NCBI GenBank assembly: GCA_040757625.1 | Contig: JBFLWU010000017.1 | Span: 13,937 to 77,936, forward strand | DNA length: 64,000 bases | Direction of reading: 5' to 3' | Source: Thermodesulfobacteriota bacterium | GTDB taxonomy: Bacteria; Desulfobacterota; Desulfobacteria; Desulfobacterales; JARGFK01 | Shown: one piece after another, positions 33,123 through 56,775 of the stretch | How the letters are laid out: the number at the start of each line of letters is the position of its first letter | Position numbering within the stretch: the stretch's first letter is position 1 | Program-made: the position numbers and the translations under genes | The notes under the pieces: generated by a model | Told to the model about the DNA's origin: nothing | Databases searched by the model: none | Seen by the model: only the letters and a program-made list of their open reading frames with translations

Positions 33123-34049
33123 CTACAAAAAGTCCTTTATGAGACGGGCCATGTCCGTCGTGTTTTCAGCCGCAACCCAGTTGACTTCGCCGTCGGCCTT
33201 AAACCAGGTCAGCTGGCGTTTGGCGTACCGGCGGGTGTCGCGCTTAAAGGTGCTGAGGGTTTCCGGCCAGGACCGGCGGCCCTGAATAAAATCAACCATG
33301 TGGCGGTAGCCGATGGACTGCATGGATTTCAGGCCGGGAGCGTACCCCCGGGCAAGCAGGCTTTTTACCTCCTGCAGCAGGCCGGCTGCGATCATATGAT
33401 CCACCCGTGCATTGATTCTTTCATATAGCGCGATGCGGTCCCTGTCCAGTCCGATTTTTAAAACCGAATAAGGTCTTTCGCTGAATCCGTGTCCGGATTG
33501 AAACCGTGAGATCGATTGCCCGGTCAGCTCATGGATTTCCAGCGCCCGCAAAATCCGATAGGTGTCATTGGGATGAATCCTGCGGGCGCTTTCCGGGTCA
33601 CAGGCCGCCAGGCGCCGGTGTAATTCTGCCGCGCCATTAACGGCGGCATCTTTTTTCAGACGTCGGCGCAGGGCGGGATCGACCGGATCGGCCTGGAAGA
33701 GCCCTTTTAAAAGGGCCTTGATGTACAGGCCGGTTCCGCCCGTCACAAAGGGGACGATGCCCTCCGTATGAAGTTTGCCGATCCGGTCTCTGGCCATATC
33801 GGCATAACGGGCGGCATTGAAAGGCTCGTCGGGTGTCGCCACGTCGATCAGGTAATGGCGGACCTGCTGCTGTTCCGATGGGGTGGGTTTGGCGGTGCCG
33901 ATATCCATGAAACGATAAATCTGCATGGAATCGGCGCTGATAATTTGACCGTTAAACCGGACAGCCAACTCAATGGCGGCAGTTGTTTTCCCGCTGCCGG
34001 TAGGGCCGCAGATGACGATCACTTTCGGTTTGGATTTGTCCGGATTCAT
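33123..34049 (-). CDS. miaA: tRNA dimethylallyltransferase
   Basis: GPTGSGKT, ADSMQIY, DIGTAKP, GGTGLY, YAKRQLTW. Confidence 0.97.
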   Translation of the reverse strand: MNPDKSKPKVIVICGPTGSGKTTAAIELAVRFNGQIISADSMQIYRFMDIGTAKPTPSEQQQVRHYLIDVATPDEPFNAARYADMARDRIGKLHTEGIVPFVTGGTGLYIKALLKGLFQADPVDPALRRRLKKDAAVNGAAELHRRLAACDPESARRIHPNDTYRILRALEIHELTGQSISRFQSGHGFSERPYSVLKIGLDRDRIALYERINARVDHMIAAGLLQEVKSLLARGYAPGLKSMQSIGYRHMVDFIQGRRSWPETLSTFKRDTRRYAKRQLTWFKADGEVNWVAAENTTDMARLIKDFL

Positions 34050-34364
34050 TCAGTTCCGTTTTCATCAAAAAATATTCAGGCGCAACATCATAAAGAAACC
34101 ATATATAACCGTATAAAATCAATATTAAATATGATATTTTCACGGAGCTGCCTGGTAAAAACCGGGGGCCAGGAAATCGTAAAGCCGAACAGGCTCTTAT
34201 CCGTTATTGTTAAATAACAGGCAGAAATTCACTTTAGCGGCCGCATCGGATTGTCCACAAACAGTATACAGGGCTGTCATCAAGTTGGGCAGAAAATGAG
34301 GCCCGATAATAGCTGGAATTTCGGCAGGCCGTCATATTGTGAAAGAATTGTTTGTGTTTTCAGT

Positions 34365-34505
34365 CTATTGTTTGCATCGTCCCCGTCTTTTCCGCCGGCA
34401 CCCGTTTTTAATACTACCAGGCATGTTTTTTGCGAGTATCTTAATAAAGCCATACCGCCTGATTAAGATTGTGAACAAAGCGGTTAAGGGCTCCATGAGG
34501 GGCAT
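34365..34505 (-). CDS. Possible 46-aa small protein
   Basis: Near-perfect SD AAAGGAGGT 6 nt before the ATG; no recognisable family. Confidence 0.3.
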   Translation of the reverse strand: MPLMEPLTALFTILIRRYGFIKILAKNMPGSIKNGCRRKRRGRCKQ

Positions 34506-34693
34506 GTTGATACCTCCTTTGATAGGGCAGGGGAACGGTACTGGCAAGCCGGGCCCCTGCTCAACACCGCACAAAAACCGGAAAGCCGAGAAGCAAAAAG
34601 CAGGAAAGGGGGAGGTGCAAACGCCGGTTCAATGGCAACCGTGTTCGAGACCCCCCTCGCCTCCCCCTTTTTACATCAAGTTCAGCTTATTAT

Positions 34694-34951
34694 CCCGGAT
34701 ATTTCACGTTATGCATTCGTTCATTTGCAAGGCACTCCGGGGTGCAGCTGTACTTTGCGTACCGCAAACCCCGGATAACGCAGCAAATGGGCGAATGCAT
34801 TTCGCCCACCGGGTGAAAATTTTTCAGGCATTTGCCTGATGCAATTGAGATAACAAAGCGTACCGCTTGTTTCTGCCTTAAGTCTGAATCTAACCGTGTA
34901 TTATCAAGATCTTTTTAAAACTTGCTGAAAAATTTTCATGAAATATCCGGG
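34694..34951. mobile_element. MITE/REPIN-like element family B
   Basis: Perfect 13-bp terminal inverted repeats CCCGGATATTTCA / TGAAATATCCGGG. Internal inverted repeats ATGCATTCGTTCATTTGC / GCAAATGGGCGAATGCAT, TCCGGGG / CCCCGGA and TGAAAATTTTTCAG / CTGAAAAATTTTCA. Confidence 0.75.
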
Positions 34952-35214
34952 TTGTCCGCCTGAGGCGGATTAATCCTCAGCATCCATTATCTATTCAAAT
35001 TGTTAAGGGCAGGGCGGGGGAGCGCCCCCCTTTGCATCTATAAATGAGAGGCCGGACAGGACAACAGCTGAAAAAGCCTCCGACCCCTGACATTAATAAG
35101 CGAATCATATGTGAATGCGTCTCTTTTCCGGGTTCAGGTCTCCGGCTTTAATGAGCAGCCGTTGTTTTCTCGACAGATCCGAGGCAAACGGCCGTCGATT
35201 TCAGCTAAAAAAGG

Positions 35215-35244
35215 TTGACATTTGCACAGATTTTTAACTATGAC
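35215..35244 (+). promoter_or_regulatory. Candidate sigma-70 promoter of the hdr-flx operon
   Basis: TTGACA-18 nt-TATGAC. Confidence 0.4.
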
Positions 35245-35300
35245 GATACCTTAAATCTTACAAAAAGATACATGGAAAGTTAGCATAAAGGAATTTTCTT

Positions 35301-37088
35301 ATGTTTTTTAACGTGGCGCTGATTGTTTCGCTTGTCGTCTTTGGAATCGGCCTGATCTACAAGGTTTCCACCTGGTTTCGCCGCAAGATCGGCAGGGGGG
35401 CGGACCGCTATTCGGCAACCATGCGGTTTGCGGCGGCGATCAAAGGGATCGCGGGGGTTTTTTTCAGCCGGAACATCTTCACGCTGATCAGGGTTTTTAT
35501 CGTCGACGTGCTTTTGCAGATGCGCATCTTCAAAGAGGATTTTCTGCGCTGGCTGATGCACATGCTCATATTTGCCGGGTTTATGCTGCTGCTCCTGATG
35601 CATGCCCTGGACAAGCTGATTACGGCTAAGATTTTCAGCGATTATTATGCCACGCTGAACCCCTTTATGTTCCTGCGCGACCTTTTCGGACTGATGGTGG
35701 TGGCGGGGGTCGCCATTGCCGTCTACCGCCGGTTTATTTTAAAGGTGCCCCGGCTCAAAACCAGCGGCATGGATCTCTACGCCATCCTGATTGTTGCCGT
35801 TATCATGGTGTCCGGGATTCTGCTGGAGGGCGTCAAACTCACTTCCCCGACCGTTTTTCGCAATATGGTGGAGCAGTACGGCAGCCTGGACGACGAGGAG
35901 CAGGTAAAGGCCCTGGAAAGTCTTTGGGTAAAAGACTTCGGCCTGGTTTCCGCGGAAGTCGGGGGCCCGTTTGAAGAAGACATCCTGGAGAAGGGGCGCG
36001 AAATCCACGAGGAGAGTTGCGCCGCCTGTCATTCTCCAACGAAATGGGCATTCGGCGGGTACGCATCGGCAAAGGCCCTGCGGCCGATCGCCCTGGGACT
36101 GGACGACGCCGGGGCGGCCGACATGCTCTGGTATATACATATTCTGGCCTGTTTTCTGGGGCTGGCCTATCTGCCTTTCAGCAAGATGTTTCATGTCTTT
36201 GCCAGCCCCCTCAGCCTGATGGCCGCCGCGGTCATGAACAAGGAGACCTCCCATCCGGCCAATATCGCCACCCGCCAGGCCATGGAACTGGATGCCTGCA
36301 TGCATTGCTGCACCTGCAGCCTGCGCTGTTCGGTAGCACCCGCTTGCGACAGGTTCAATAATTCCAACATTCTTCCTTCTGAAAAGCTGGCTTTTCTTAA
36401 AACCTACGCCGACGGCAAGGCCCTCGGTGAAAAGGGGATGTCCGCCATTCAAGAGGGGATTTATCTGTGTACCAACTGCGACCGCTGCACCGTGGTGTGT
36501 CCGGCGGGCATCAATTTGCGCGAGCTGTGGTTCAACGTGCGCGAGGAACTCATCCACAAAGGGGTTCCGACGGCGATGATGCTCACGCCGTTTTCCTTTT
36601 ACCGCGGGCTGAACCGGCAGTCCCTGGAGGCTGAAACTTACGGAAAGCCGCTGGATGCCGCCGCCGGGGCGATTTCGGCAAAATTTAAGATGATCGATGC
36701 CCCCGACCAGGTCGTCGTCTTAAACGCCGCTGATAAGGGATTAAAGGGGCAGGCCGATGCGTCGTCACAGGCCAACACCTATGCCTACTGCTTTGCCTGT
36801 GAAAACTGCAGCACGGTTTGCCCGGTCGTAGAAAACTATGAAAACCCCCAGGCGGTTTTAAAACTTCTGCCGCACCAGATCATGCGGTCGCTGGGCCTGG
36901 GTCTGAAGGATCTGGCAATGGGGTCGGCCATGCTGTGGAATTGCCTGACCTGCTACCAGTGCCAGGAGCACTGCCCCCAAGGGGTCAAGGTGACCGACGT
37001 GCTGTATGAGCTCAAGAATTTAGCGGTTAAAGAGGCCCGACAGACAAACGGGTCCCGGCCGCCCATGGAAGATCAAAGCAAAGAATGA
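35301..37088 (+). CDS. NarI/HdrE-like membrane cytochrome b domain with a CxxCH loop, fused to two HdrC-like [4Fe-4S] dicluster domains
   Basis: About five TM helices with His pairs (LMHMLIFAGFMLLLLMH; YIH...PFSKMFH), CAACH, and four Cx2Cx2Cx3C motifs; directly upstream of hdrB. Confidence 0.85.
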   Translation: MFFNVALIVSLVVFGIGLIYKVSTWFRRKIGRGADRYSATMRFAAAIKGIAGVFFSRNIFTLIRVFIVDVLLQMRIFKEDFLRWLMHMLIFAGFMLLLLMHALDKLITAKIFSDYYATLNPFMFLRDLFGLMVVAGVAIAVYRRFILKVPRLKTSGMDLYAILIVAVIMVSGILLEGVKLTSPTVFRNMVEQYGSLDDEEQVKALESLWVKDFGLVSAEVGGPFEEDILEKGREIHEESCAACHSPTKWAFGGYASAKALRPIALGLDDAGAADMLWYIHILACFLGLAYLPFSKMFHVFASPLSLMAAAVMNKETSHPANIATRQAMELDACMHCCTCSLRCSVAPACDRFNNSNILPSEKLAFLKTYADGKALGEKGMSAIQEGIYLCTNCDRCTVVCPAGINLRELWFNVREELIHKGVPTAMMLTPFSFYRGLNRQSLEAETYGKPLDAAAGAISAKFKMIDAPDQVVVLNAADKGLKGQADASSQANTYAYCFACENCSTVCPVVENYENPQAVLKLLPHQIMRSLGLGLKDLAMGSAMLWNCLTCYQCQEHCPQGVKVTDVLYELKNLAVKEARQTNGSRPPMEDQSKE

Positions 37089-37128
37089 AGGCCTTCATTT
37101 ATAAAAGCTTAACTGATGGGAATCGAAT

Positions 37129-37998
37129 ATGAAATTTGCGCTGTTTCTGGGCTGTAATATCCCGGCCCGAGTCAAACCATATGAATCATCGGCCAGGGCG
37201 GTTCTGGACAGGTTGGCGATTGAAGTGGCGGATGAACGTGAGTTTAAATGCTGCGGCTATCCCGTCCGCAATGTCGATTTTAAAATGTACCTGATCTTCT
37301 CGGCCCGAAATCTGGCCCTGGCCGAGCGGCAGGGGCTGGACATGCTGACGCTTTGCAAGTGCTGCTACGGCAGTCTGAAGAAGGCCGCGCATGTGCTCAA
37401 AACGGATGCGGCCCTCCGGGATGAAGTTAATGCAATCCTGGCACCGGAAGGACTGGCCTTTAACGGGAAGACCGCCGTCAAGCATTTTTTGTCGGTCCTC
37501 TATCACGATGTCGGGCTGCCGTCCCTGAAGGAAAAAATCGCGCGGACATTCAAGGATTTAAAAATTGCGACCCATTACGGCTGTCATGCCTTGCGGCCCA
37601 GCGACATCATGCAGTTCGACAATCCGGTGGCGCCGATTATTTTTGATGAACTGGTGACCGCCACCGGGAGCAAAAGCATTGAATGGACGACCAAGCTGGA
37701 ATGCTGCGGGGCGCCGCTTCTGGGCGTCAATGACGATCTTTCCATGGATCTGGCCGCTCGGAAACTGGCCGACGCCAAGCAGGCCGGGGCGCAATACCTG
37801 TGCGTCGCCTGCCCCTATTGCCAGATGCAGTTCGGTACGGTCCAGGAGATGATCGTATCGGCCCGGGGTGCCGGTTATCGGCTCCCCACGATCCTGTACC
37901 CGCAGCTTCTGGGGCTTGCCCTGGGAATTGACCGTCGGGTGCTGGGGATTGAAACGCAACACACGGATATCAGTGGTATCGAAGCCTTTTTAGTATAG
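37129..37998 (+). CDS. hdrB: Heterodisulfide reductase subunit B
   Basis: FLGC, CCG, CKCC, HYGCH, ECCGAP, ACPYC (two CCG domains). Confidence 0.93.
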
Positions 37999-38006
37999 GA
38001 GCTGCA

Positions 38007-41000
38007 ATGTCTCAGAAAAAGATTGGTTCGGTTATGGTTGTCGGTGGCGGCATCGCCGGGATGCAGGCCGCGCTGGATGCGGCCGATTCCGGTTATTATG
38101 TCTATCTGGTTGAGCAGACCGCCTCCATCGGCGGCGTGATGTCTCAGCTGGACAAGACGTTCCCCACCAATGACTGCGCCATGTGAATTATTTCACCCAA
38201 GCTGGTCGAGGTCGGCCGGCACATTAATATCGAGCTGCTGACGCTTTCAGAGGTCACTGGCATATCCGGAGAGGCCGGGAATTTTGAGGTGACCATTATC
38301 CGGCATCCCCGCTATGTGGATGTAGAAAAGTGCATCGCCTGCGGTCTGTGCGCGGAAAAATGCCCCAAAAAGGTTACCAGCGAGTATGACAGCGGTCTCG
38401 TCAAACGCAAGGCCATATATGTCAAGTATGCCCAGGCGGTCCCCCTTAAATACGCCATTGACGCCAAGGAGTGTATTTACCTGACAAAGGGCAAGTGCAA
38501 GGCCTGTCAGAAATTCTGCCCCACCGGGGCGGTGAATTTCGAGGACCAGCCCAGCGAGAAAATCCTGAACGTGGGATCGGTGATTATCACCAGCGGCTGC
38601 GAGGTGTATGATCCCCATACCCATGACGTCTACGGTTACGGCAAATCCCCCAACATCGTCACCAGCCTTGAATTCGAGCGGATCCTTTCGGCGTCAGGGC
38701 CTTACGGCGGCCACCTGGTGCGGCCGTCCGACGAAAAGGAGCCCAAAAAAATCGCCTGGCTCCAGTGCGTCGGATCCCGCGATGTGCACATCGGCGCCAG
38801 GGGTTACTGCTCGTCGGTGTGCTGCACCTATGCCATCAAGGAGGCGATGCTGGCCAAAGAGCACAGCAAGGAGGGGCTGGATGCCGCTATTTTTTACATG
38901 GATATCCGCACCCACGGCAAAGATTTTGAAAGATATTACAACCGCAGCCGGACCGCCGGCGTTCGCTTTGTCAAATCGAAAATAACGAATATCGTTCCCC
39001 AGGCCGACAGCGGCCTGCAGCTCATCCGCTACATCGACGAGTCCGGTCGGCGGGTGGAGGAAGCTTTTGACATGGTGGTCTTGTCCGTCGGACTGGGGGT
39101 GAGCCAGTCGGCGGTGGCGCTGGCCAACCGGATGAAAGTCGCCCTGGATTCCTATCAGTACGTCGCCACCAGCAGCTTTGCGCCGGTGCAGACGTCGGCT
39201 CCCGGTATTTTTGTCTGCGGCGCCGTGGAGGCCCCCAAAGACATTCCCTCTTCGGTGATTGAATCCAGCGCCGCCGCAGGGATTGCCGGCAGCAGCCTGA
39301 TCGAATCGCGCTGGAGCCTGACCAAGAAAAAGGAAATTCCCCCGCAGACGGATACCCGCGGGGAATCGCCCCGTGTCGGGGTCTTTGTCTGCAACTGCGG
39401 CACCAACATCGGCGGGGTGGTCAACGTGCCCGGGGTGGTTGAATATGTCCGAACGCTCCCCTATGTCGTCTACGCCGAGGATAACATGTTCAGCTGCTCC
39501 CAGGACACCCAGAACAATATGGCCAAGCTGATCAAGGAAAAAAACCTGAACCGCATTGTGGTGGCGGCCTGCACCCCCAAAACCCATGAGCCGCTTTTTC
39601 AGGAAACCGTGACCAATGCGGGGATCAACAAATACCTGTTTGAAATGGCCAACATCCGCAACCAGTGCTCCTGGGTCCACGGCGCCGTTCCGGCCGAGGC
39701 CACTGAAAAGGCCAAGGAACTGACGCGCATGGCCGTGGCCAAGGTCGCCCTGCTGGAGGCCTTAAGCGAACCGGTCTTGGAGATCAATCAGACCGCCCTG
39801 GTCATCGGCGGCGGTTTTGCGGGGATGACGGCCGCCCAGACCCTTTCGCAGCAGGGCTATCATACCATCATCGTCGAAAAGGGTGACCGGCTGGGGGGAC
39901 AGGCGCGGCATCTTTATGAAACCTGGCGGCGGGAAGATATTCAACTGAACCTGGAGACGCTCATTAAAGGGGTAACGGACGACGAAAGGATCGATGTCTA
40001 TCTGAATGCCGCGATCACCAAGGTGGACGGTTTTGTTGGAAATTTCAAGACCACCATCAAAACCGGCGACACGGAGCAGGAGCTGGCCCACGGGGTCACG
40101 ATCATCGCTTCGGGCGCCAGCGAACTGAAACCGGACCTGTATCTTTACGGAAAGAATCCGCGCGTTCTGACGGCCCTTGATCTGGATCGGAAATTTATTG
40201 AAAACGATCCGGGGCTGAAAGAAAAAAAGAGCGCCCTTTTCATCCAGTGCGTCGGTTCGCGCATCCCGGAGCGTCCCTATTGTTCCAAGGTCTGCTGCAC
40301 CCATTCCATCAACAGCGCCCTGCGGCTGAAGGAACTGAATCCGCAGATGGACGTATTTATTCTATACCGGGACCTGCGTTCCTACGGACTGCGCGAAGAT
40401 CTGTATCGCGAAGCCCGGGCCAGGGGCATCATTTTTATCCGCCACGATTTTGATAAGGGGCTGGACGTTGCCGCCGAAGGCGCGGATCTGGCGATCCGGT
40501 TTACGGATACGATCCTGCGGCGCCGGATGGAGATCCGTCCGGACCTGGTGGTCCTGGCGACGGCGATCACCCCGCCCAAGGAAAATCCGCTGGCCCAGCA
40601 GTATAAGGTGACCCTTAACGACGACGGCTTTTTTATGGAGGCGCACGTCAAGCTCCGACCGGTGGACTGCGCCACGGACGGGGTTTTCATCTGCGGGCTG
40701 GCCCATGCTCCCAAACCGCTGGACGAGTCGATTGCCCAGGCCCAGGCGGCGGCCACCCGGGCGGTTACCCTGCTGGCCAAGAAAACCATCCAGATGAGCG
40801 GCACGGTGGCGCATACGAATCCGATGAACTGCAGCAGTTGCGGGGTCTGCGTGGCGCTGTGCCCGTATTCGGCCCCGTCCTTTACCCAGAAGGGTCCCTT
40901 TTCCGGAAAGGCCGAGATCAATCCGGTTTTATGCAAAGGCTGCGGCCTGTGCGTGGCGTCCTGCCGATCCGGGGCCATACAGTTGAGGGGGTTTGACAAC

Positions 41001-41045
41001 GACCAGATCTTCGCGCAGATTTTTTCTTTGCGCGAGGCGGTTTAA
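38007..41045 (+). CDS. hdrA: Heterodisulfide reductase subunit A, selenoprotein, two FAD modules (1012 aa); TGA at 38184-38186 read as Sec
   Basis: ATG 38007 after AGGAG: [18 protein letters not shown]...[17 protein letters not shown], continuing in frame into the track ORF 38289-41045. The HdrA consensus here is PTNDCxxC. Confidence 0.92.
38201..38220 (+). promoter_or_regulatory. SECIS-like hairpin of hdrA
   Basis: GCUGGUCG-AGGU-CGGCCGGC starting 15 nt after the UGA. Confidence 0.72.
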
Positions 41046-41097
41046 TGTTTTAAGAATACCTGTTCGGTGTTCATTACAATAAAAGGAGAAAAGTGGC

Positions 41098-41529
41098 ATG
41101 ACCGATTGGGAACCCAAAATCATCAGTTTCCTGTGTAACTGGTGCAGCTACGGCGCCGCCGATCTGGCCGGTGTCGGCCGGATGTCCTATCCGTCCAACG
41201 TCCGGGTGATCCGCATTCCCTGTACCGGCCGCATGAGCCCCAAATTTTTTCTGGCGGCGCTGCGCGAAGGCGCCGACGGCGTCTGGGTGTCCGGGTGACA
41301 TCCCGGTGACTGCCATTACCTGGAAGGTAATTATTACGCGCGTCGCAAGTTCGCACTTTTTGAAAACCTGGCGGAATACATGGGGCTTGAGCCGGGCCGT
41401 ATTCATTACTCCTGGATTTCTTCGGCCGAGTCGACCAAGTTCGTCGACGTGGTCAAAACGGTCACGGAGGCGGTCAGGGCGCTGGGCCCCAACAAACAAT
41501 TTGTGAAGAAAATGGCTAAGGTGGCGTAA
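41098..41529 (+). CDS. flxD: FlxD/MvhD-like [2Fe-2S] subunit, selenoprotein; TGA at 41296-41298 read as Sec
   Basis: [35 protein letters not shown] (consensus GCHPGDCHY), continuing in frame to TAA at 41529. Confidence 0.92.
41315..41331 (+). promoter_or_regulatory. SECIS-like hairpin of flxD
   Basis: AUUACCU-GGA-AGGUAAU starting 17 nt after the UGA. Confidence 0.72.
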
Positions 41530-41531
41530 AC

Positions 41532-42479
41532 ATGCTGGAATATATTGATAGCATCCGGAAAATAGCCGAAAAGATATTAAAGGAAGGCACCGTCGAAATG
41601 GTCATCGGGTTTCGCAGGGGAACCGTGCCGCTGATGAACGAACCATGCGTTGTCAAAAAACCCGAGGATGTGAAACATCTGGTATGGGACAGCAGCTGCG
41701 GCGTTAACCTGGCGAATTATCTGCCCGACCGCAAGGAAAAGATCGGCATTGTGGCCAAAGGCTGCGATTCCCGCAACATTGTTACCCATATCATTGAAAA
41801 CAAGATCAAAAGGGAGCAGCTCTATATCATCGGGATTCCCTGCAAGGGGATGATCGATCGGCGCAAAATTACCGGGATGCTGGAAGTTGAAATAGAAAGT
41901 GCCGTCGAGACGGCAGAGGGGATCACGGTCAAGGGCGGCGGGGTTGAAAAAACCTTTCGAAAAGCGGATGTGCTGCAGGACAACTGCGCCATCTGCATTC
42001 ATCGCAACCCGGTCCTGTCCGACGAACCGGCGGCAGGGCCGGTGGTGGAACAGCAGGGCGTGGACCGGTACGAAGACGTCCGCCGGATCGAAGGGATGGC
42101 TACAGAAGAAAAATTTCGGTTTTTTGACGACCTGCTGGCCGAGTGCATTCGCTGTTATGCCTGCCGCAACGCCTGCCCCCTGTGTTACTGCCCCACCTGC
42201 TTTGTGGATGAATCCCGGCCCCAGTGGGTCGGCAAGGGGCAGGATCCTTCGGATATCAGGACATTCCATTTTTTAAGAGCGTATCATTGCGCCGGCCGCT
42301 GTACGGATTGCGGCGCCTGTGAACGGGCCTGCCCGATGGGGATCAAGGTCCGGCTCCTGACCAAAAAACTGGAAAAAGACGCTTTGGAACTTTTCAACTG
42401 GGAGGCGGGCTTGTCCCTGGAGGTCAGGCCGCCGCTGGATACCTATAAACCCGAAGATCCGGACGAATTTATCAAGTAG
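41532..42479 (+). CDS. flxC: FlxC (FrhB/FdhB-like Fe-S subunit)
   Basis: AKGCDSR, CIRCYACRNACPLCYCPTC, HCAGRCTDCGACERACP. Confidence 0.85.
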   Translation: MLEYIDSIRKIAEKILKEGTVEMVIGFRRGTVPLMNEPCVVKKPEDVKHLVWDSSCGVNLANYLPDRKEKIGIVAKGCDSRNIVTHIIENKIKREQLYIIGIPCKGMIDRRKITGMLEVEIESAVETAEGITVKGGGVEKTFRKADVLQDNCAICIHRNPVLSDEPAAGPVVEQQGVDRYEDVRRIEGMATEEKFRFFDDLLAECIRCYACRNACPLCYCPTCFVDESRPQWVGKGQDPSDIRTFHFLRAYHCAGRCTDCGACERACPMGIKVRLLTKKLEKDALELFNWEAGLSLEVRPPLDTYKPEDPDEFIK

Positions 42480-42513
42480 GATCAGGACCGCTTCTACACA
42501 AAGGGCGCAACAC

Positions 42514-43554
42514 ATGAAGGTTGTAAAAATAAACAAGCAAAAGTGGACCGAGGGAATCGAAGCATTGAAAAATATGTATCGCCTTTACGGTCCGGTTAAG
42601 GAAGACCGGTTTCACAACTTTACCCTGCTCGAAAAAGGCGTTTCTCCGGATTTTAATTTTCAGAATACCCGGCTGTCACCCAAAGGGGTCATTTACCCCC
42701 AGACAGAGGTCATGTTTCATTACACCCTGGATGAAAGCAGGGAAGATCATCATGTCATGAAGGAGGCCGCGGGGGAGGCCGCTCCCAGGGCGATTGTCGG
42801 CATCCGTCCCTGTGATGCCGCCGCGTTTCTGCTGGTTAAAAGAAATTTCGACACGCCCGAATACCAGGATCCCTACTGGGTGAGGGCTTATGAGGGCACT
42901 ACCCTGGTAGGGCTGGCCTGCCAGCAGCCCTGTCAGACCTGTTTCTGCACCACCGCCGGATGCGGACCGTTTCACGAGGAAGGGCTGGATGTGCTTCTGG
43001 TGCAGGAAACGGACGCTTTTCTGGCAAAGGCGCTTACTGCAAAAGGCGAAAACCTGTTGAAAGCGGCGGGCTGGGGCGAAGCCGGCGACGGCGGTACGAT
43101 TGAAAAGATGAAACAGGATGCCGAGACCCGCATCCGCACCGCCGTTCATACCGACCGGCTTGCGGAGAAAACCATTCCGGACCTTTTTGACGCCCCTTTC
43201 TGGGACGACGTCGCCTTTAGCTGCATCAACTGCGGGACCTGTACCTATGTCTGCCCCACCTGCTGGTGTTTTGACATTCAGGATGAGGTCAGCGGCAAGG
43301 CGGGCCTGCGCCTGCGCAACTGGGACAGCTGCATGTATCCGCTGTTCACCTTTCACGGATCCGGCCATAATCCGCGAAATGCTAAAACCAAACGGGTCCG
43401 GCAGCGATTCATGCATAAGCTTAAATATTACGTGGATAAATACCATAACGGTATTCAATGTGTGGGGTGCGGACGATGTATTCGCCTGTGCCCGGTCAAT
43501 ATCGATATCCGGCGCGTCTGTGAACTGATGAACACTTACGCAGCCAGCCGTTAA
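42514..43554 (+). CDS. flxB: FlxB (AsrA-like Fe-S subunit)
   Basis: GIRPCD, CINCGTCTYVCPTCWCF, WDSC, CVGCGRCIRLCP. Confidence 0.87.
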   Translation: MKVVKINKQKWTEGIEALKNMYRLYGPVKEDRFHNFTLLEKGVSPDFNFQNTRLSPKGVIYPQTEVMFHYTLDESREDHHVMKEAAGEAAPRAIVGIRPCDAAAFLLVKRNFDTPEYQDPYWVRAYEGTTLVGLACQQPCQTCFCTTAGCGPFHEEGLDVLLVQETDAFLAKALTAKGENLLKAAGWGEAGDGGTIEKMKQDAETRIRTAVHTDRLAEKTIPDLFDAPFWDDVAFSCINCGTCTYVCPTCWCFDIQDEVSGKAGLRLRNWDSCMYPLFTFHGSGHNPRNAKTKRVRQRFMHKLKYYVDKYHNGIQCVGCGRCIRLCPVNIDIRRVCELMNTYAASR

Positions 43555-43598
43555 CAGTTAGGGTTTCCCCGGGAAATATCCGGGTGAAGGGGGATGCG

Positions 43599-44444
43599 GT
43601 GCAGAATCCATATTTGCCATATCCGGTTCGCATTGATGAAATCGTCACTGAAACCGTTGACAAAAATCTTAAAACATTCCGTTTTGTGTTTTTAAACCCT
43701 GAAGATGAGCAGAAATTTTCCTACCGGGCCGGGCAGTTTGCCGAACTTTCCGTGGCAGGCAAGGGTGAAATCCCCATCGGGATTGCTTCCTCTCCCACCG
43801 AAAAAGGGTTTGTCATGTTCACCGTCAACAAAGTCGGCCTGGTCTCGTCTTATCTGCACACCATGAAGGCGGGGGACATCATGGGCATCCGGGGCCCACT
43901 GGGCAACTGGTATCCCTGGGATGTACTCAAAGGTAAAAATGTCGTCATTATCGGCGGCGGTTTTGCCTTCACCACCCTGCGGTCTTCCATCGTCTATATG
44001 CTGGATCCTGCCAACCGAAAGAATTTCAAGGACATTCATGTGATCTACGGGGCGCGGTCGCCCGGCATGCTGCTTTATCGCGACGAACTGTCGGCCTGGG
44101 AGCAGCGCGACGACATCAATATGCATATTACCGTGGATGCCACCGATGATCCCAACTGGAAATACAATGTGGGATTTGTCCCCACCATTACCGAACAAAA
44201 AGCCCCGCCCGGGGATGCCGATACCTATGCGATCGTGTGCGGACCGCCGATTATGATCAAATTTACCCAGCCGGTTCTGGACAAACTCAATTACGGGCAC
44301 GATCATATCATCATGTCCCTGGAGATGCGGATGAAATGCGGCATCGGCATCTGCGGCCGCTGCAATATCGGCAAGGAATTCGTGTGCAAGGACGGCCCGG
44401 TTTTTACCCTGGCCCAGCTGAACGGGATGCCCAGAGAATACTGA
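43599..44444 (+). CDS. flxA: FlxA (FAD/NAD-binding, [2Fe-2S])
   Basis: GTG start giving MQNPYLP. RGPLGN, IGGGFA, CGPPIM, MKCGIGICGRC, CKDGPVF. Confidence 0.9.
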   Translation: MQNPYLPYPVRIDEIVTETVDKNLKTFRFVFLNPEDEQKFSYRAGQFAELSVAGKGEIPIGIASSPTEKGFVMFTVNKVGLVSSYLHTMKAGDIMGIRGPLGNWYPWDVLKGKNVVIIGGGFAFTTLRSSIVYMLDPANRKNFKDIHVIYGARSPGMLLYRDELSAWEQRDDINMHITVDATDDPNWKYNVGFVPTITEQKAPPGDADTYAIVCGPPIMIKFTQPVLDKLNYGHDHIIMSLEMRMKCGIGICGRCNIGKEFVCKDGPVFTLAQLNGMPREY

Positions 44445-44559
44445 TAAATTTCATATTGACATTGAAGATTCAATCATATAGATAAGCTAAGATAAAAATC
44501 CAATGCTTAATCAGGCGGCAAGCCGTTTCACAATTATTTCATAAAAGGAGGGTCGTTTA

Positions 44560-44877
44560 ATGCCAGAAGTTGATTTTGGTGGAAAAAAATTTGTTGTGGA
44601 TGAAGACGGATTTATTGACAATTTTGAAAACTGGTGCCCCGAATGGGTTCAGCATGTCAAAAAAGAAGAAGGAATCGACGAGTTGTCGGAAGAACACTGG
44701 AAAGTCATCAATGTTCTTCAGGATTATTACAGGAAGAACGGAATTGCACCGATGGTCCGGGTGCTTTCCAAGGTTACGGGTTATAAGTTGAAACATATTT
44801 ATGAACTTTTTCCGTCCGGACCCGGCAAGGGAGCCTGTAAGATGGCCGGTCTTCCCAAACCCACCGGCTGCGTGTAA
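44560..44877 (+). CDS. dsrC: DsrC sulfur relay protein (both C-terminal Cys present)
   Basis: VDEDGF, HW, LFPSGPGKGACKMAGLPKPTGCV; strong SD AAGGAGG. Confidence 0.95.
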   Translation: MPEVDFGGKKFVVDEDGFIDNFENWCPEWVQHVKKEEGIDELSEEHWKVINVLQDYYRKNGIAPMVRVLSKVTGYKLKHIYELFPSGPGKGACKMAGLPKPTGCV

Positions 44878-44967: not shown

Positions 44968-45372
44968 ATGAAAACCACGCTGACGGTAAAAACCACGGCA
45001 AAAACGGAGTTGATCGACATGACTGCCGAGGTGCAGCATCTGGTTCGTGCGCAGGGATTTTCAGACGGTCTGTGCATGCTGTATGTGCCCCATACCACCG
45101 CAGCCGTTACAATTAATGAAAGCGCGGATCCCAGTGTCCGATCGGACATTCTGATGGTATTAAATAAAATTATTCCCTGGGAGGCGGGATACCGCCATCT
45201 GGAGGGGAATTCAGCGGCGCATGTCAAGGCCACCCTGGTGGGGGCTTCGGAAATGATCGCCATTGAAAACGGCGACCTGGTGCTGGGGACCTGGCAGGGA
45301 ATATTCTTTTGCGAATTCGACGGTCCGCGGACCCGCAAGGTGCATGTAAACCTATTTAAAAAGCTTATTTGA
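44968..45372 (+). CDS. yjbQ: YjbQ-family (UPF0047) protein
   Basis: PHTTAA, INE.ADP, HLEGNSAAH, LGTWQGI, EFDGPR. Confidence 0.92.
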   Translation: MKTTLTVKTTAKTELIDMTAEVQHLVRAQGFSDGLCMLYVPHTTAAVTINESADPSVRSDILMVLNKIIPWEAGYRHLEGNSAAHVKATLVGASEMIAIENGDLVLGTWQGIFFCEFDGPRTRKVHVNLFKKLI

Positions 45373-48043: not shown

Positions 48044-49252
48044 TTATTCGTCCGGGGGTATTTTACCATCCGGTTTCAGCACGGGCGGGTTCACCTGCAC
48101 GGTTTCAGGATACTTCAAGCCGGAGCCGGTGTTCAGCAGGACGACTTTTTCATCGGGCCGGATCCAGCCGTCTTTGCGCAGACGCACGGCGGCGCTCAGG
48201 GTGGCCGCGCCTTCCGGGCATACGAACGCGCCTTCGCGGGATGCCAGCAGATATTCAGCCTTAAGGATCTCATCGTCCTCGACAGCCACCGCGCAGCCCC
48301 CGGTTTTATAAATGGCGTCAAGAACCAGAAAATCGCCCAAGGCCTTTGGGACCGTAATGCCGAAGGCCAGGGTATGGGCGCCTTTCCAGAATTCCGATTC
48401 GGTCTTTTTGTCCTGCCAGGCCCTTACGATGGGCGCACATCCGGTGCTTTGCACGGCAACCAGGCGGGGAAGCCTGCCTTCGATCCACCCCAGCTCTTTT
48501 AGCTCCAGCAGGGCCTTGTAAATGCCGATGATGCCGACCCCGCCGCCCGTGGGATACAGGATAACGTCCGGCAGCTTCCAGTCGAACTGCTCGGCGATCT
48601 CAAGCCCCATGGTTTTTTTGCCTTCGATGCGGTAGGGCTCCTTGAGGGTCGAGGCGTCGAACCAGCCGTATTCGGCAACGGCCTTGGCCACGATTTTGCC
48701 TGCGTCGCTGATCAGGCCGTCCACCAGGTAAAGGGAGGCGCCTGAAACGGCGCATTCCCCCCTGGGTATGGGCGGGGCATCCTTGGGCATGACGATCACC
48801 GCCTTGATTTTAGCCGGTGCGCAGTAAAGCGCCCAGGCCGCACCGGCGTTGCCGTTGGTGGGCATGGCCAGCACCCTGACTCCCAGCTCCCTGGCGCGGG
48901 AGACCCCGACGGCAGCCCCCCGGGCCTTGAAGGTGCCGGTGGGGATGATGCCTTCATCCTTCAGATACAGATTGGGCAGGTTAACTTCGGGGCCCAGATT
49001 TTTCAGCGGCAAGAGCGGCGTCATGCCTTCACCGAGGCTCACGATGTTTTCTTCCTTTGCGACGGGAAGCAGTTCCCGGTAGCGCCACAGGTCCGTTCTG
49101 CGGCCGGCCAAATCCTTTTTGGTAAAGTGCGTTGCGACCTTAGCCATATCATAGGCAACCAGCAGGGGGCTGCCGCACCGGCACAGCTGGATCGGTTTTT
49201 CGCTTTCATAGGTTTTCTGACACTTCGGGCACGCAAGGTGGGATACAAACAT
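48044..49252 (-). CDS. thrC: Threonine synthase-family PLP enzyme
   Basis: N-terminal CxxC...CxC, SLGEG.TP, PTGTFKARG, EGKKT, PTGGG, TGSGLKY. Confidence 0.85.
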   Translation of the reverse strand: MFVSHLACPKCQKTYESEKPIQLCRCGSPLLVAYDMAKVATHFTKKDLAGRRTDLWRYRELLPVAKEENIVSLGEGMTPLLPLKNLGPEVNLPNLYLKDEGIIPTGTFKARGAAVGVSRARELGVRVLAMPTNGNAGAAWALYCAPAKIKAVIVMPKDAPPIPRGECAVSGASLYLVDGLISDAGKIVAKAVAEYGWFDASTLKEPYRIEGKKTMGLEIAEQFDWKLPDVILYPTGGGVGIIGIYKALLELKELGWIEGRLPRLVAVQSTGCAPIVRAWQDKKTESEFWKGAHTLAFGITVPKALGDFLVLDAIYKTGGCAVAVEDDEILKAEYLLASREGAFVCPEGAATLSAAVRLRKDGWIRPDEKVVLLNTGSGLKYPETVQVNPPVLKPDGKIPPDE

Positions 49253-49264
49253 AATATGTCTTTC

Positions 49265-49669
49265 CTATTCCTTTTGCAGGATTAAAAGGGCGATGGCTTC
49301 AATCTCGATATTGGCATTTCTGGGAAGACAAGAGACCTCGACGCAGGAACGGGCCGGGGCGTCTTTAGGGAAGAATTCTGCGTAAGCCTCGTTGATTTTG
49401 GGGAAGTCGTCCATTTTTCTGATAAACAGGGTCGTCTTGACCACCTGATCCAGGGAACTTCCCGCGGCGACAAGGATGTTTTTCAGGTTGGCGACGGCCT
49501 GACGGGTTTCAGCCTGGATGTCGTGATCAACCAGTTTTCCGGTTTCCGGCGACAAAGCCAGCTGTCCGGAAACAAAAACAAAAGCGCCTGCCCGGACGGC
49601 CTGAGAATACGGCCCGATGGCGCCGGGGGCTTTTTCGGTCTTGACGATGGTTTTGGTTGCAGAGGGCAT
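49265..49669 (-). CDS. ridA: RidA-family enamine/imine deaminase
   Basis: APGAIGPYSQA, SGQ, PARSC, IEIEAIA. Confidence 0.92.
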   Translation of the reverse strand: MPSATKTIVKTEKAPGAIGPYSQAVRAGAFVFVSGQLALSPETGKLVDHDIQAETRQAVANLKNILVAAGSSLDQVVKTTLFIRKMDDFPKINEAYAEFFPKDAPARSCVEVSCLPRNANIEIEAIALLILQKE

Positions 49670-49930
49670 AGGGATTCTCCTTTGATAATGTGGCTATCGG
49701 TCAATTCATAGTTTTATTGGCCGCCATAATAATCCGCTTCTATGCGTTCAGACTGTCACACGCTTCGAATCGGATCGCCAATGGCAACCTTTTTGGCAAA
49801 CATGAGCTGTAAAACCCGCCGAATTAATGAATATAAAAGAAAACATATCCTTTCAACAAAAAAAACTGAACGAGGCAACCGGCAGCACGCAAGCTGATGC
49901 AAACACCGTTGCCATAATGATGCGAAATAG

Positions 49931-49964
49931 AAAGGCCGCCTGCTTTTTCAGCAGACGGCCTTTT
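49931..49964 (-). terminator. Terminator after PFOR
   Basis: AAAGGCCG-CTGCT...AGCAG-CGGCCTTT. Confidence 0.65.
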
Positions 49965-49991
49965 ATCACTCATACCAGAACGGATCCGGTA

Positions 49992-53558
<3,567 letters not shown>

Positions 53559-53793
53559 CTAGAATCATTATTTTCGGAATAGCATATTTAATAACCGTTG
53601 TCACATAACGGTGACAAAAAATCTTAATCCAGTCAAAGGTCTTACCATTATACCATTTTGAATTTGGTGTAAAGGATAAATTTGCCCAAATTGATATTGA
53701 GGTTTTATTGGCCTTATTGTAAAAGAAAGGGCGTAACCAGTTGCGGCTTTTTTACCTTTTAATAATAAATTAAGATGGTTAAAGGTGATAAAA

Positions 53794-54798
53794 ATGACTG
53801 CTTGGGAAATAAATCCGGGAAAACTGCTTGAAATATCCGGGAGCTACTGGCGGACGAGCGTTCTGCATGCGGCCGTAAAGCTCGACGTGTTTACGGCGAT
53901 CGGAAGCGAATCGTCCGACGCCGACGCTCTGGCCGGAAAACTGTCGGCAGATTCACGGGCGCTGGCCATGCTGCTCAATGCCCTGACCGCCATGGGGCTT
54001 CTGGTGAAAAAGGGGGCGTCCTATGCCAATACCCCGGTCAGCGCGGCCTTTCTATCCAAGCATTCTTCCCGTTATATCGGTTTTATCATCATGCATCATT
54101 ATCATCTGGCGGAGTCCTGGCTGCGGCTCGACCAGGCGGTTCTGGCCGGACGGCCGGTCAGGACGCGGGCTGCCGCCGGCGATGCGGATCGGCGGGAGGC
54201 CTTTTTGATGGGGATGTTCAACATGGCCATGAGCGTGGCCCCGCGCATTGTCAAGGCCGTCGACCTTTCCGGCCGGCGGCGCCTGCTGGACCTGGGGGGC
54301 GGCCCCGGGACCTATGCCGTTCATTTTTGCCGGGCCACCCCGGAAATGCGGGCCACGGTCTATGATCTTGCCGCCACGCGGCCGTTTGCCGAAAAGACCA
54401 TTGCCCAGTTCAACCTGGCGGACCGGATTGATTTCATGGACGGCGATTACGTGACGGAAGAACGCATCAAAGGGTCCTTCGATGCGGCCTGGCTGTCGCA
54501 CATCCTGCACGGGGAGGGGCCGCAAACCTGCCGGGAGATCATCCGTAAAACCGTAAGCGCCCTGGAGCCCGGCGGCATGCTGGTCGTGCACGAGTTCGTT
54601 TTAAACAACGAAAAGGACGGGCCGCTTTTCCCCACGCTGTTTTCCCTGAACATGCTCCTGGGAACCGAGGGCGGACAGGCCTATTCGGAAAAAGAGATCA
54701 TGGACATGCTGGCCGGGGCCGGGCTCAAGGACATCAAGCGCATCCCCTTTGACTCGCCCAACGATTCCGGTTTGATTTCAGGGACGGTACCCCGATAG
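53794..54798 (+). CDS. SAM-dependent O-methyltransferase with dimerisation domain
   Basis: LHAAVKLDVF, LLDLGGGPG, SHILH, LEPGG. Confidence 0.9.
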   Translation: MTAWEINPGKLLEISGSYWRTSVLHAAVKLDVFTAIGSESSDADALAGKLSADSRALAMLLNALTAMGLLVKKGASYANTPVSAAFLSKHSSRYIGFIIMHHYHLAESWLRLDQAVLAGRPVRTRAAAGDADRREAFLMGMFNMAMSVAPRIVKAVDLSGRRRLLDLGGGPGTYAVHFCRATPEMRATVYDLAATRPFAEKTIAQFNLADRIDFMDGDYVTEERIKGSFDAAWLSHILHGEGPQTCREIIRKTVSALEPGGMLVVHEFVLNNEKDGPLFPTLFSLNMLLGTEGGQAYSEKEIMDMLAGAGLKDIKRIPFDSPNDSGLISGTVPR

Positions 54799-54865
54799 AC
54801 AGGACCCTGGATCAACACGATGCCGAGGTCGGAATTAAACGAAATGGGGCGGTTAATCCAGGGAT

Positions 54866-54951
54866 CGGGGAGTTTTTCAAATGTTGTCTATTGCACCCGG
54901 GGACAGCCAAGTGACAACGGCTCACCCCCTAAGCGTTCTTGATGAAACCTC
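54866..54951 (+). repeat. Palindromic repeat family C, internally deleted copy
   Basis: CGGGGAGTTTTTCAAATGTTGT...CCCGGGGACAGCC-AAGTGACAACGGCTC...GAAACCTC. Confidence 0.7.
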
Positions 54952-54954
54952 ATT

Positions 54955-55980
54955 TTAATCATTTCCGCTCTCCTGGCCCGCACCCAGAATGTCGACGTCC
55001 ACCGCCGAAGCATCGTCGGATTCAATAATGGGCGTGCAGGGCGCGCGGTTAAGCCTTAAAGACAGCACGTCAAAGCGGTTGTACTGGCCGGCCACATCAT
55101 GCCGGAGCTTGGGGCCGATGATGGCCTGGATGTCGCAGTCGGCATAGACGATCTCTTCCCGGTCGGGCGAGGCTGCCGCGACCATGAGCTTCCCGCCGGG
55201 GGCATAGATGCCGGTGAAACCCGATTGCGGGCTCGTCAGGATCCGTCGCTTCTCTCCGGTGTCGGCCAGCTTGTCGACGACGGTGCCGTCGATCATTGAT
55301 GAAACCACGATGTGAAAGACCTTTCCCTCAAAGGCATGGGCGGCGCCGCGCAGCCGGATGTCGGCGCCGATGTCGTAGCCGCCGTAATCCGCGCTTGGCA
55401 TGGACGGGTAGTTGGAGACGTGGATTTCCTCTCCCTGGGCGATCAGGGCGAAACGGGCCAGCGGGTTTGCGTTTTCCCCGCAGATGAGGGTTCCCAGTTT
55501 TCCGATGGACGTATCCAGGACCCGCAGGGTGCTGCCGTCCCCGAACCCCCAGACCAGCTTTTCCGCGTAGGTGGGCATGAGCTTTCTGTGTTTCAGGAGG
55601 ATGTTCCCTTCAGGGCCGATGACAAGATTGGTATTGTAAAGGGTTCCCAGGGTATTGTCGGGCCGTTCGTTGATGCCGATCACCACATGGATGCCCGTCT
55701 CTTTAGCGGCCTTGCATAATTGATCGGTGACAGGGCCGGGCACCCTGACCGCATGTTTGAGCATCTCCACAAAAAAAGGAGTGGTCCTGAAAACATTTTC
55801 CAGCCGGTTCCAGTAGGGATAGCCTGAAATAAACACCTCCGGAAAGGCTATCAGGTCGGCGCCATTTCGGGATGCTTCAGCGATCAGGGAAAGCGCCTTG
55901 TCGAGTGTCCTCTCACGATCCAGAAAGACCGGGGCGGCCTGGACCGCGGCCGCCTTGAATTTCGGGAATGTTTCACCCAT
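54955..55980 (-). CDS. Nitrilase (carbon-nitrogen hydrolase family)
   Basis: ATG 55980 after GAGGA. Catalytic triad motifs FPE, HRKLMPT.AE, LICGEN. Confidence 0.9.
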   Translation of the reverse strand: MGETFPKFKAAAVQAAPVFLDRERTLDKALSLIAEASRNGADLIAFPEVFISGYPYWNRLENVFRTTPFFVEMLKHAVRVPGPVTDQLCKAAKETGIHVVIGINERPDNTLGTLYNTNLVIGPEGNILLKHRKLMPTYAEKLVWGFGDGSTLRVLDTSIGKLGTLICGENANPLARFALIAQGEEIHVSNYPSMPSADYGGYDIGADIRLRGAAHAFEGKVFHIVVSSMIDGTVVDKLADTGEKRRILTSPQSGFTGIYAPGGKLMVAAASPDREEIVYADCDIQAIIGPKLRHDVAGQYNRFDVLSLRLNRAPCTPIIESDDASAVDVDILGAGQESGND

Positions 55981-56343
55981 GAGCGTTTCCTCCTGTTGAT
56001 GAAATGTCGCTGGGTTGAAGCGGTTAATGAATGATTCCAGCCGTCCCGGTTTGATCAAGAGGCAGGCTGTCCGATTTTGCAATGTTATCTTTTGAAGATT
56101 GTCAAATCAAGCAAATCGTGGTTAAATGACACGATAAGTCATCCTAAAAAATTATGCTCTATGAATGAGAGACTGAGGAGTTTTATGCCAAATGTCTATG
56201 GAGTGAACCGACGTCACTTCACCGTTTGCCGGCGATCCGGCCCGGGACAGTCCCCGCCTCCTGGCGTAATTATATTTTTTTGAGATAACTTCTTTTATGA
56301 CCAACCTGTTGAAAACCAATATTTTTACTTGACAGCAAAGGCT

Positions 56344-56775
56344 ATGACGGATTCTTACCAAATTTTCCCGGTGGGGTTTGTGAGGAAAAAAGGCTCCAAA
56401 ACGCAGATTGAAATTTTGCCGAAGTTTCGTGCGGCGCTTTTCGGACTGGATGGATTCTCGCACATTCATGTGCTTTACTGGTTTCATGAAAACGATACCC
56501 CGCGGCAGCGCAGCATCCTGCAGGTGCATCCCCGCAATGACAAACGCAACCCCCTGGCCGGGGTGTTCGCCACGCATTCACCGGTCAGGCCCAATCTGGT
56601 CGCGCTGACCATCTGCCGGATCACGGCAATCCGGGAAAATATAATTGAAATCGACGGCATCGACGCCAATGACGGCACCCCGGTAATCGACATTAAATCG
56701 TACAACCGAAAAAATGAGGCGGAACCTCCTTTTCATGTCCCTGAATGGGCGCGTGCCGGGAAGGAATCATGCTGA
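56344..56775 (+). CDS. tsaA: tRNA m6t6A37 methyltransferase TrmO/TsaA family
   Basis: FSH..VLYWFH, GVFATHSP.RPN, DGTPVIDIK.Y. Confidence 0.88.
   Translation: MTDSYQIFPVGFVRKKGSKTQIEILPKFRAALFGLDGFSHIHVLYWFHENDTPRQRSILQVHPRNDKRNPLAGVFATHSPVRPNLVALTICRITAIRENIIEIDGIDANDGTPVIDIKSYNRKNEAEPPFHVPEWARAGKESC

Follow-up and report, generated by a model that had tools for sequence, protein, structure and literature searches.

We analysed a 64,000-nt stretch of DNA from a Thermodesulfobacteriota bacterium (contig JBFLWU010000017.1), hereafter called the window. Positions 35301-44877 of its + strand carry an operon of eight head-to-tail genes that are separated by intergenic gaps of 2-115 nt, as found by analysis of the open reading frames (ORFs). 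The gene order is X, hdrB, hdrA, flxD, flxC, flxB, flxA and dsrC, where X is our name for the first gene, and where hdrA and flxD each contain an in-frame TGA as a candidate selenocysteine (Sec) codon. X stands at the hdrC position and encodes a fusion protein, which is the main subject of this report. The eight genes, with protein lengths in amino acids (aa) and the basis of each assignment, are the following.

35301-37088, + strand: X, 595 aa, fusion protein at the hdrC position (ORF, motifs, Pfam/NCBIfam, AlphaFold2 model, structural matches)
37129-37998, + strand: hdrB, 289 aa, two CCG motifs for two non-cubane clusters (two Pfam CCG domains, E 3.6e-23)
38007-41045, + strand: hdrA, 1012 aa, in-frame TGA (Sec) at 38184-38186 (NCBIfam HdrA2/HdrA)
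41098-41529, + strand: flxD, 143 aa, MvhD/VhuD type, in-frame TGA (Sec) at 41296-41298 (Pfam FlpD, E 7.4e-51; NCBIfam VhuD)
41532-42479, + strand: flxC, 315 aa, Fe-S protein (Pfam Fer4 families, position and synteny)
42514-43554, + strand: flxB, 346 aa, AsrA/HydB-like Fe-S protein (Pfam Fer4_22, E 1.2e-33; NCBIfam ShyB/HydB/AsrA)
43584-44444, + strand: flxA, 286 aa, NAD(P)H-binding flavoprotein with a [2Fe-2S] site (Pfam NAD_binding_1, FAD_binding_6, DHODB_Fe-S_bind)
44560-44877, + strand: dsrC, 105 aa, with both C-terminal cysteines (C-X10-C-V; Pfam DsrC, E 2e-36)

A preliminary description of this DNA, made from the sequence alone, had named the genes downstream of X as hdrB, Sec-hdrA, Sec-flxD, flxCBA and dsrC, and the ORFs together with the Pfam and NCBIfam matches bear these names out. 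It had also seen in X the gene at the hdrC position, which agrees with our finding that no separate hdrC is present among the operon genes and that an HdrC domain is fused to a membrane domain of the type found in NarI and in EMO, the electron-transferring flavoprotein (ETF):(methyl)menaquinone oxidoreductase. No etf genes were detected by the ORF and Pfam scan among the operon genes or their neighbours. The domains of X, in which TM denotes a transmembrane helix, are arranged as follows.

35301-36236, + strand: membrane domain, aa 1-312, NarI/EMO type (hydropathy, DSSP of the model, His conservation, structure matches)
35844-36113, + strand: loop between TM4 and TM5, aa 182-271, acidic, with four predicted helices and the candidate axial ligand M189
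36018-36032, + strand: CAACH, aa 240-244, a haem c attachment motif by sequence
36252-36575, + strand: first 2x[4Fe-4S] domain, aa ~318-425, EMO/HdrD/SdhB-GlpC type, with Cys motifs at 333 and 390
36699-37049, + strand: HdrC domain, aa ~467-583, 2x[4Fe-4S], with Cys motifs at 497 and 548

The long helices of X comprise residues 2-27, 81-102, 122-147, 156-181 and 272-293/295-311, according to DSSP of the model. H87 and H101 lie in the second long helix, 14 residues apart, and H280 and H298 lie in the last one, 18 residues apart. Four CxxCxxCxxxC motifs start at residues 333, 390, 497 and 548. The AlphaFold2 model, which was built from 54 sequences, reached a predicted local distance difference test (pLDDT) of 88.8 and a predicted template modelling score (pTM) of 0.83; it contains a four-helix insert, and TM3 is one continuous helix. 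The best match among solved structures is EtfD of Mycobacterium smegmatis (9ojn, Foldseek E 1.8e-6), and residues 1-436 of the model align to this chain with Z 23.1 and a root-mean-square deviation (rmsd) of 3.7 over 332 residues (VIA-align). With the same program, NarI chains gave Z 11.0-11.6 over 170-178 residues, and the membrane domain also matches Pfam Nitrate_red_gam (E 9.1e-6). The first dicluster domain has sequence matches of the SdhB/GlpC type. Residues 467-581 match HdrC chains with Z 13.3-14.3 and an rmsd of 2.1-2.5 over 102-107 residues, and by sequence this domain matches solved HdrC chains with E 6e-20. Pfam found no CCG domain in X. Because the match to EtfD covers residues 1-436 and the match to HdrC covers residues 467-581, we conclude that X is an EMO/EtfD-type membrane and cubane module with a true HdrC domain at its C-terminus.

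These results bear on two further points of the preliminary description. The five-helix NarI-like domain with His pairs 14 and 18 residues apart is recovered in the motifs, in the model and in the match to NarI. The description had also given X two HdrC-like dicluster domains; this stands for the second, whereas the first is of the EtfD/EMO type (9ojn). We considered and rejected an assignment of X as QmoC: the NCBIfam qmoC profile (E 3.1e-23) scores far below its cut-off and matches only the HdrC part. Proteins of the X family carry generic names in databases, such as '4Fe-4S dicluster protein' or 'HdrC/nitrate reductase gamma' (ESM Atlas and others).

The loop between TM4 and TM5 holds 8 lysines and arginines versus 17 aspartates and glutamates, and 11 and 3 lysines and arginines, respectively, are found in the loops that follow TM1 and TM3. 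From these loop charges, the N-terminus of X is predicted outside and the C-terminus inside. The loop is separated by the last helix from the cytoplasmic Fe-S domains, whatever the number of earlier helices; the CxxCH motif is therefore predicted to lie opposite the Fe-S domains, that is, on the periplasmic side. The same arrangement, with the N-terminus out and the C-terminus in, is described for the solved EMO of Syntrophus (SaEMO) in the available part of its report (Kosian et al. 2026, bioRxiv 10.64898/2026.08.18.745454). As stated in the preliminary description, CAACH is found in the loop between TM4 and TM5, which was placed in the periplasm there by NarI topology; the loop length of roughly 100 aa given in it has to be corrected to about 90 aa (182-271). 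That description had further proposed to look at topology and at the CxxCH and His residues in homologues. The topology prediction fits a periplasmic loop, and the homologues, described next, retain the motif and the histidines.

To describe conservation, we used 61 full-length (530-730 aa) representatives of 50%-identity clusters, drawn from among 150 listed hits plus X, from which fragments had been dropped; the rows that were checked share 29-56% identity with X. All 61 representatives have CxxCH, with variable middle residues. The four histidines are kept in nearly all of them (H87 in 59, H101 in 60, and both H280 and H298 in 61). Furthermore, M189, W209 and the 16 cluster cysteines are invariant in the alignment of 54 sequences. 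Position 189 was also compared in 40 loop sequences from genomes, where it is Met in 39 and His in a single locus (L061). Methionine and histidine both serve as axial ligands of haem. The motifs of X are beyond what chance would give by a wide margin. The four conserved histidines would fit two haems b, and by analogy with SaEMO and with NarI, H87 and H298 may ligate the proximal haem b, and H101 and H280 the distal one.

When modelled alone, the loop forms a four-helix unit (pLDDT 83.7) that resembles no solved structure convincingly (best Z 3.5), although the top three rows of its structural comparison are haem-c domains of CcoP. The genome encodes two Cytochrom_C_asm proteins (CcsA-type cytochrome c assembly) above the cut-off. 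In our reading, X probably carries an outward-facing haem c on the loop, and its ligation would be His/Met.

The protein encoded next to X, HdrB, retains both complete CCG cluster motifs. Its residues C9, C41, C42, C76, C78, C152, C192, C193, C228, C231 and H153 are invariant in 38 sequences. A His of HdrB is proposed as a proton donor in the available part of a recent report (Yin et al. 2026, bioRxiv 10.64898/2026.08.25.746951), and H153, which lies beside C152, may correspond to it. We modelled X (1-580) together with HdrB and three haems. The interface score ipSAE was 0.88 for this complex and 0.00 for the best of three controls; this mark was reached by 58 of 80 solved complexes and by 2 of 110 mismatched pairs. 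At least 97% of the contacts are common to the model runs, and the partner pLDDT is at least 89. HdrB contacts both dicluster domains of X, the EMO-type one and HdrC, as well as the linker between them, with an interface at X residues 342-352, 391-407, 425-451 and 489-576. The model thus supports binding of HdrB to X. As structures of HdrBC and EtfD have already been solved, this pass may reflect only likeness to those complexes.

The ORF of hdrA is open only with readthrough of the TGA at 38184-38186, and the same holds for flxD and the TGA at 41296-41298. A search with profiles found selB above the cut-off in the genome, and the hdrA TGA aligns to a Cys of the solved HdrA (5odc_A). Decoding of the two codons as Sec is plausible for these reasons. 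Hairpins resembling a selenocysteine insertion sequence were sought downstream of both TGA codons, and those found were no better than in shuffled sequence. HdrA itself combines two copies in tandem, a truncated HdrA FAD domain and a complete HdrA, as seen from three stretches that align to 5odc_A. Its residues 11-371 match the part with FAD and the inserted ferredoxin (146-501), and in the second copy residues 455-608 correspond to the N-terminal part (2-155) and residues 827-1009 to the C-terminal part (466-648). The Sec codon is located in the first copy.

To compare the neighbourhood of X among genomes, we kept the best 75 loci of 370 confirmed relatives in the genome collection, so that the counts are biased towards near kin; loci enter a count where they hold enough sequence. 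X is followed by hdrB in 65 of 67 loci, and X-hdrB is followed by hdrA (at least 55% identical) in 48 of 57. What comes after hdrA varies. The full set flxDCBA lies downstream of X in 8 of 26 loci. In one locus (L014), the core is followed by MvhD, an FlxC-like protein and a split, probably Sec-containing, formate dehydrogenase, and in another (L017) by the MvhD and FlxC-like parts only. The core precedes a NuoF-like protein in L010 and an FrhB/FdhB-like protein in L070 and L064, and some loci have only sensors and regulators after hdrA. Based on this variety, we conclude that X-HdrB-HdrA is the conserved core, for which Flx serves as one input module among several exchangeable ones.

A profile of the loop matches 171 of 401 genomes sampled from the order of the window (E 1e-8 or better), including 113 of the 279 high-quality genomes, and these matches come from 82 of 174 genera. 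Loci with a long-form X and hdrB were also seen in a single-cell genome whose record is labelled Spirochaetota (L018) and in a metagenome-assembled genome (MAG) labelled Anaerolineales (L039), which could be due to gene transfer or to mis-binning.

The loop is present in 63 of the 74 X genes. In the other 11 (L020-L022, L025-L031 and L070), the 93-residue loop is replaced by about nine residues, e.g. LTSYNHYQK, and X is ~503 aa long. We inferred a tree with a quick method and midpoint rooting from 83 rows, comprising the X of the window, ten representatives and 72 X genes that code for 480 aa or more; two short fragments of X were excluded. The loop-less sequences are monophyletic (100 in the Shimodaira-Hasegawa-like approximate likelihood ratio test, SH-aLRT), nested among the loop-bearing ones and adjoining the clade of the window, and a single loss of the loop is the simplest reading. 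The members of this clade include MAGs labelled Desulforapulum autotrophicum and Desulfobacula, the Desulfobacterium sp. N47 record and Syntrophobacteraceae MAGs; three loci of the Syntrophobacteraceae type retain flxDCBA downstream. The presence of the loop-less form in named records may be the reason that the haem c motif has so far escaped notice. A different variant is seen in three single chains of 711-716 aa (P0162, P0181 and P0214), which share the membrane domain and the CxxCH loop with X and have a single dicluster domain and two CCG motifs. They are enzymes of the HdrF/EMO type with a putative haem c.

The host assembly has 4.9 Mb and is 93% complete. It contains dsrAB and a true DsrK on contig C5, and the dsrC of the operon is the sole DsrC-family gene found in it. 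A candidate role of X as a replacement of DsrMK was rejected, as DsrK is present. The genome contains a second X-type locus on contig C2 (172139-180217, L084), which comprises an FAD_binding_2 flavoprotein (583 aa), an HdrA::MvhD fusion (783 aa), X2, HdrB2 (294 aa) and a Crp-type regulator; X2 has 585 aa, is 55% identical to X and contains the CxxCH loop. A conventional cluster with MvhD-like and FlxC-like genes, hdrA, a 193-aa hdrC-like ORF and hdrB lies on contig C8 (~48258-56422).

Taken together, we think it probable that the operon encodes a membrane-wired, NADH-dependent FlxABCD-HdrABC bifurcating hub in which X replaces the soluble HdrC, and in which NADH, ferredoxin and DsrC are joined to menaquinone and/or periplasmic cytochromes. 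The preliminary description had already proposed that the bifurcating hub is connected to the menaquinone pool and/or periplasmic cytochromes, and the sequence-level elements of that reading held up. We propose the cofactors, the quinone use and the direction of electron flow of the X complex by analogy. FlxABCD would pass electrons from NADH to HdrA, where bifurcation would take place; one electron would reach ferredoxin and the other would travel along the HdrC branch to DsrC at HdrB. The wire would run from the haem c, and/or from a quinone site close to the distal haem, by way of haem bD, haem bP and the four cubane clusters to the two non-cubane ones of HdrB, and a branch of this X/HdrB wire would lead to the flavin of HdrA. 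The membrane domain of X would open the high-potential branch to the menaquinone pool and/or to periplasmic cytochromes c, with menaquinone being equally possible as an alternative high-potential acceptor. Because the membrane domain would open this branch, X and HdrB could also work in the manner of DsrMK(J) or Tmc and take electrons from menaquinol or cytochromes inward to DsrC.

Several observations weigh against a membrane-wired hub of this kind. The loci of one clade (11 of 74) have lost the loop yet keep the rest of X, and since everything else is kept there, the haem c is dispensable for the core. The loop modelled alone has no match with Z of at least 5 among 48,161 chains, the best being Z 3.5. 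The HdrC domain of X covers only residues ~6-112 of HdrC chains that have 183-189 aa. Furthermore, flxD (at least 60% identical) follows the core in only 14 of 37 loci, and flxDCBA together with dsrC lies downstream of X in only 7 of 26; the link of the X core to Flx and DsrC is thus not general. Lastly, as the genome also holds DsrK and the conventional hdrA-hdrC-hdrB cluster on C8, X is an addition and not the only route.

The observations can be read in other ways. X and HdrB could form a self-contained transmembrane module similar to DsrMK, TmcBC or HdrDE that works as a menaquinol- or cytochrome c-dependent DsrC reductase, with HdrA-Flx as a separate soluble enzyme that is merely co-transcribed. 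The full HdrC ferredoxin core on X would be superfluous for such a DsrMK-like unit, hdrA comes after hdrB in 48 of 57 loci irrespective of the input module, and the paralogous locus again pairs X2-HdrB2 with an HdrA::MvhD fusion. We thus regard this reading as unlikely, even though X and HdrB have the cofactor layout of DsrM plus DsrK or of EMO (NarI-type, cubane and CCG domains), the three single chains combine the same loop with two CCG motifs and have no HdrC domain, and HdrB also contacts the EMO-type first dicluster domain in the complex model.

We likewise see little probability in a quinone-linked bifurcating or confurcating enzyme comparable to FixABCX/EtfABCX, where menaquinone, and not DsrC, would be the high-potential partner and the clusters of HdrB would only relay electrons. 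Such a role would fit the non-cubane clusters of EMO, which are relays and not catalytic sites, as well as the scarcity of an adjacent dsrC in related loci (present in 7 of 26). A quinone role common to all members would agree with the retention of the di-His membrane domain in the loop-less clade, and TM3 is continuous in the model as in the quinol-oxidising NarI and DsrM-1. However, HdrB has both complete cluster motifs and a His next to C152, whereas EMO and EtfD have a degenerate distal cluster, and the sole dsrC of the genome is in this operon. Finally, it is very improbable that the membrane domain is a mere anchor that holds an ordinary Flx-Hdr at the membrane, with CxxCH as a metal or disulfide site that binds no haem: no solved structure matches the loop significantly (best Z 3.5) and one clade has lost it, but C, C and H are invariant with free middle residues (61/61), the Met is substituted by His only, the loop is on the side of haem c attachment with assembly genes present, and conservation includes each of the four His in the pattern known from NarI.

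Returning to the membrane-wired hub, we tentatively raise a broader proposition, which we hold to be a serious possibility that falls somewhat short of an expectation. The operon could encode the first HdrABC-type flavin-based bifurcating enzyme that is wired through the membrane, where a NarI-type cytochrome b into which a haem c domain is inserted in cis, as a new kind of cytochrome b/c fusion, would couple the high-potential branch to menaquinone or periplasmic cytochrome c, and where bifurcation, DsrC reduction and a proton-motive redox loop would be combined in one complex. X-HdrB-HdrA would then be a widespread module of the Desulfobacterales with interchangeable inputs (Flx, formate dehydrogenase, FrhB-like, NuoF-like).

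In a search of the full-text literature, we found no description of a fusion of NarI, CxxCH and HdrC with Hdr or Flx; key reviews were outside the reach of this search, so that an earlier mention is possible. In the parts of their text that were available, two papers that deal with Desulfobacterales as partners of methanotrophs regard Flx-Hdr as conventional, and one of them as soluble/cytoplasmic (PMC5539420, PMC10553843; the latter point in PMC5539420). Should the complex be bound to the membrane and contain haems b and c across much of the Desulfobacterales, one enzyme would be the meeting point of NADH, ferredoxin, DsrC and menaquinone, and possibly of periplasmic cytochromes as well. Such a junction would alter estimates of energy conservation for abundant marine carbon oxidisers, and it would be a natural case of a bifurcating enzyme that is coupled to a membrane redox loop.

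The surroundings of the operon showed the following. A gene-poor stretch of ~1.2 kb (34050-35300) lies between X and the divergent miaA, and its region has a lower GC content (0.485 over 34001-36000). A sequence TTGACA-N18-TATGAC at 35215-35244, upstream of X, was spotted by eye and is unlisted by the promoter scan; the promoter and terminator scan returned nothing better than shuffled sequence. An Rfam scan of the window found tRNA only and had no match in 34050-35300. miaA is also found upstream of X in six related loci (L002, L005, L009, L034, L040 and L074). On the other side of the operon lies one further gene.

44968-45372, + strand: UPF0047 gene, downstream of dsrC (Pfam, E 1.8e-43)

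A UPF0047 gene after dsrC also occurs in seven related loci (L002, L003, L006, L040, L047, L051 and L074).

Lastly, we compared the operon to known systems. FlxABCD-HdrABC was reportedly described in Desulfovibrio vulgaris Hildenborough by Ramos et al. in 2015. The gene order of our operon is what we take to be the mirror image of flxABCD-hdrABC. In both cases, homologues of FlxA-D, HdrA and HdrB are clustered, DsrC is the proposed acceptor, and the ferredoxin core of HdrC is present. In our operon, however, HdrC forms the C-terminal domain of a membrane protein of 595 aa, which also comprises a NarI-type domain, the CxxCH loop and a further dicluster domain, and HdrA is a 1012-aa tandem. The available part of one source cites FlxABCD-HdrABC as soluble or cytoplasmic and as proposed to bifurcate NADH electrons to ferredoxin and DsrC (PMC5539420).

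A second group for comparison are the ETF:(methyl)menaquinone oxidoreductases EMO, EtfD and HdrF (PDB 9ojn; 10.64898/2026.08.18.745454; Courbon et al. 2026, PMC13083937). X resembles them in having a five-helix NarI-type domain followed by a two-cubane domain, an outside N-terminus, and proximal and distal His on TM2 and TM5. In contrast to X, EMO holds the CCG domain in the same chain, is without an HdrC domain, an HdrA partner and a large TM4-5 loop, and takes its electrons from ETF. SaEMO has three His, whereas X has four His and the CxxCH loop. In the available part of its report, EMO is said to link a cytoplasmic donor to menaquinone by the same fold, with non-cubane clusters that are relays and not catalytic and a distal cluster that is degenerate in EMO and EtfD (10.64898/2026.08.18.745454). 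HdrF was defined as a fusion of membrane, HdrC and HdrB parts, and the accessible part of that text does not mention haem c (Strittmatter et al. 2009, PMC2702500).

QmoC of QmoABC is similar to X in that an HdrC-like Fe-S domain is fused to a HdrE/NarI-like membrane domain and that the partners include HdrA-like flavoproteins. We take QmoC to have the opposite domain order, with the Fe-S part N-terminal and the membrane part C-terminal, and one dicluster domain. Presumably, it also has neither a CxxCH loop nor an HdrB partner, and its partner is adenosine 5'-phosphosulfate (APS) reductase.

DsrMK(JOP) shares with our operon a NarI-type dihaem protein, as predicted here, and a cubane/CCG protein, and its cytochrome b is fed by the periplasmic haem c protein DsrJ. 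The available part of the report on DsrMKJOP describes an electron path that starts at a periplasmic haem c protein and leads through the NarI-type DsrM and then DsrK to DsrC; it also names a continuous TM3 as a feature of the quinol-oxidising NarI and DsrM-1 (Yin et al. 2026, 10.64898/2026.08.25.746951). DsrJ is a separate trihaem subunit, whereas here the cytochrome b itself holds a single putative haem c as an insertion. DsrK has one non-cubane cluster, as far as the accessible text describes it, whereas HdrB has both motifs, and DsrMKJOP is without HdrA or Flx. With the X operon, the building blocks known from the EMO and DsrMKJOP structures of 2026 are seen in a third arrangement.

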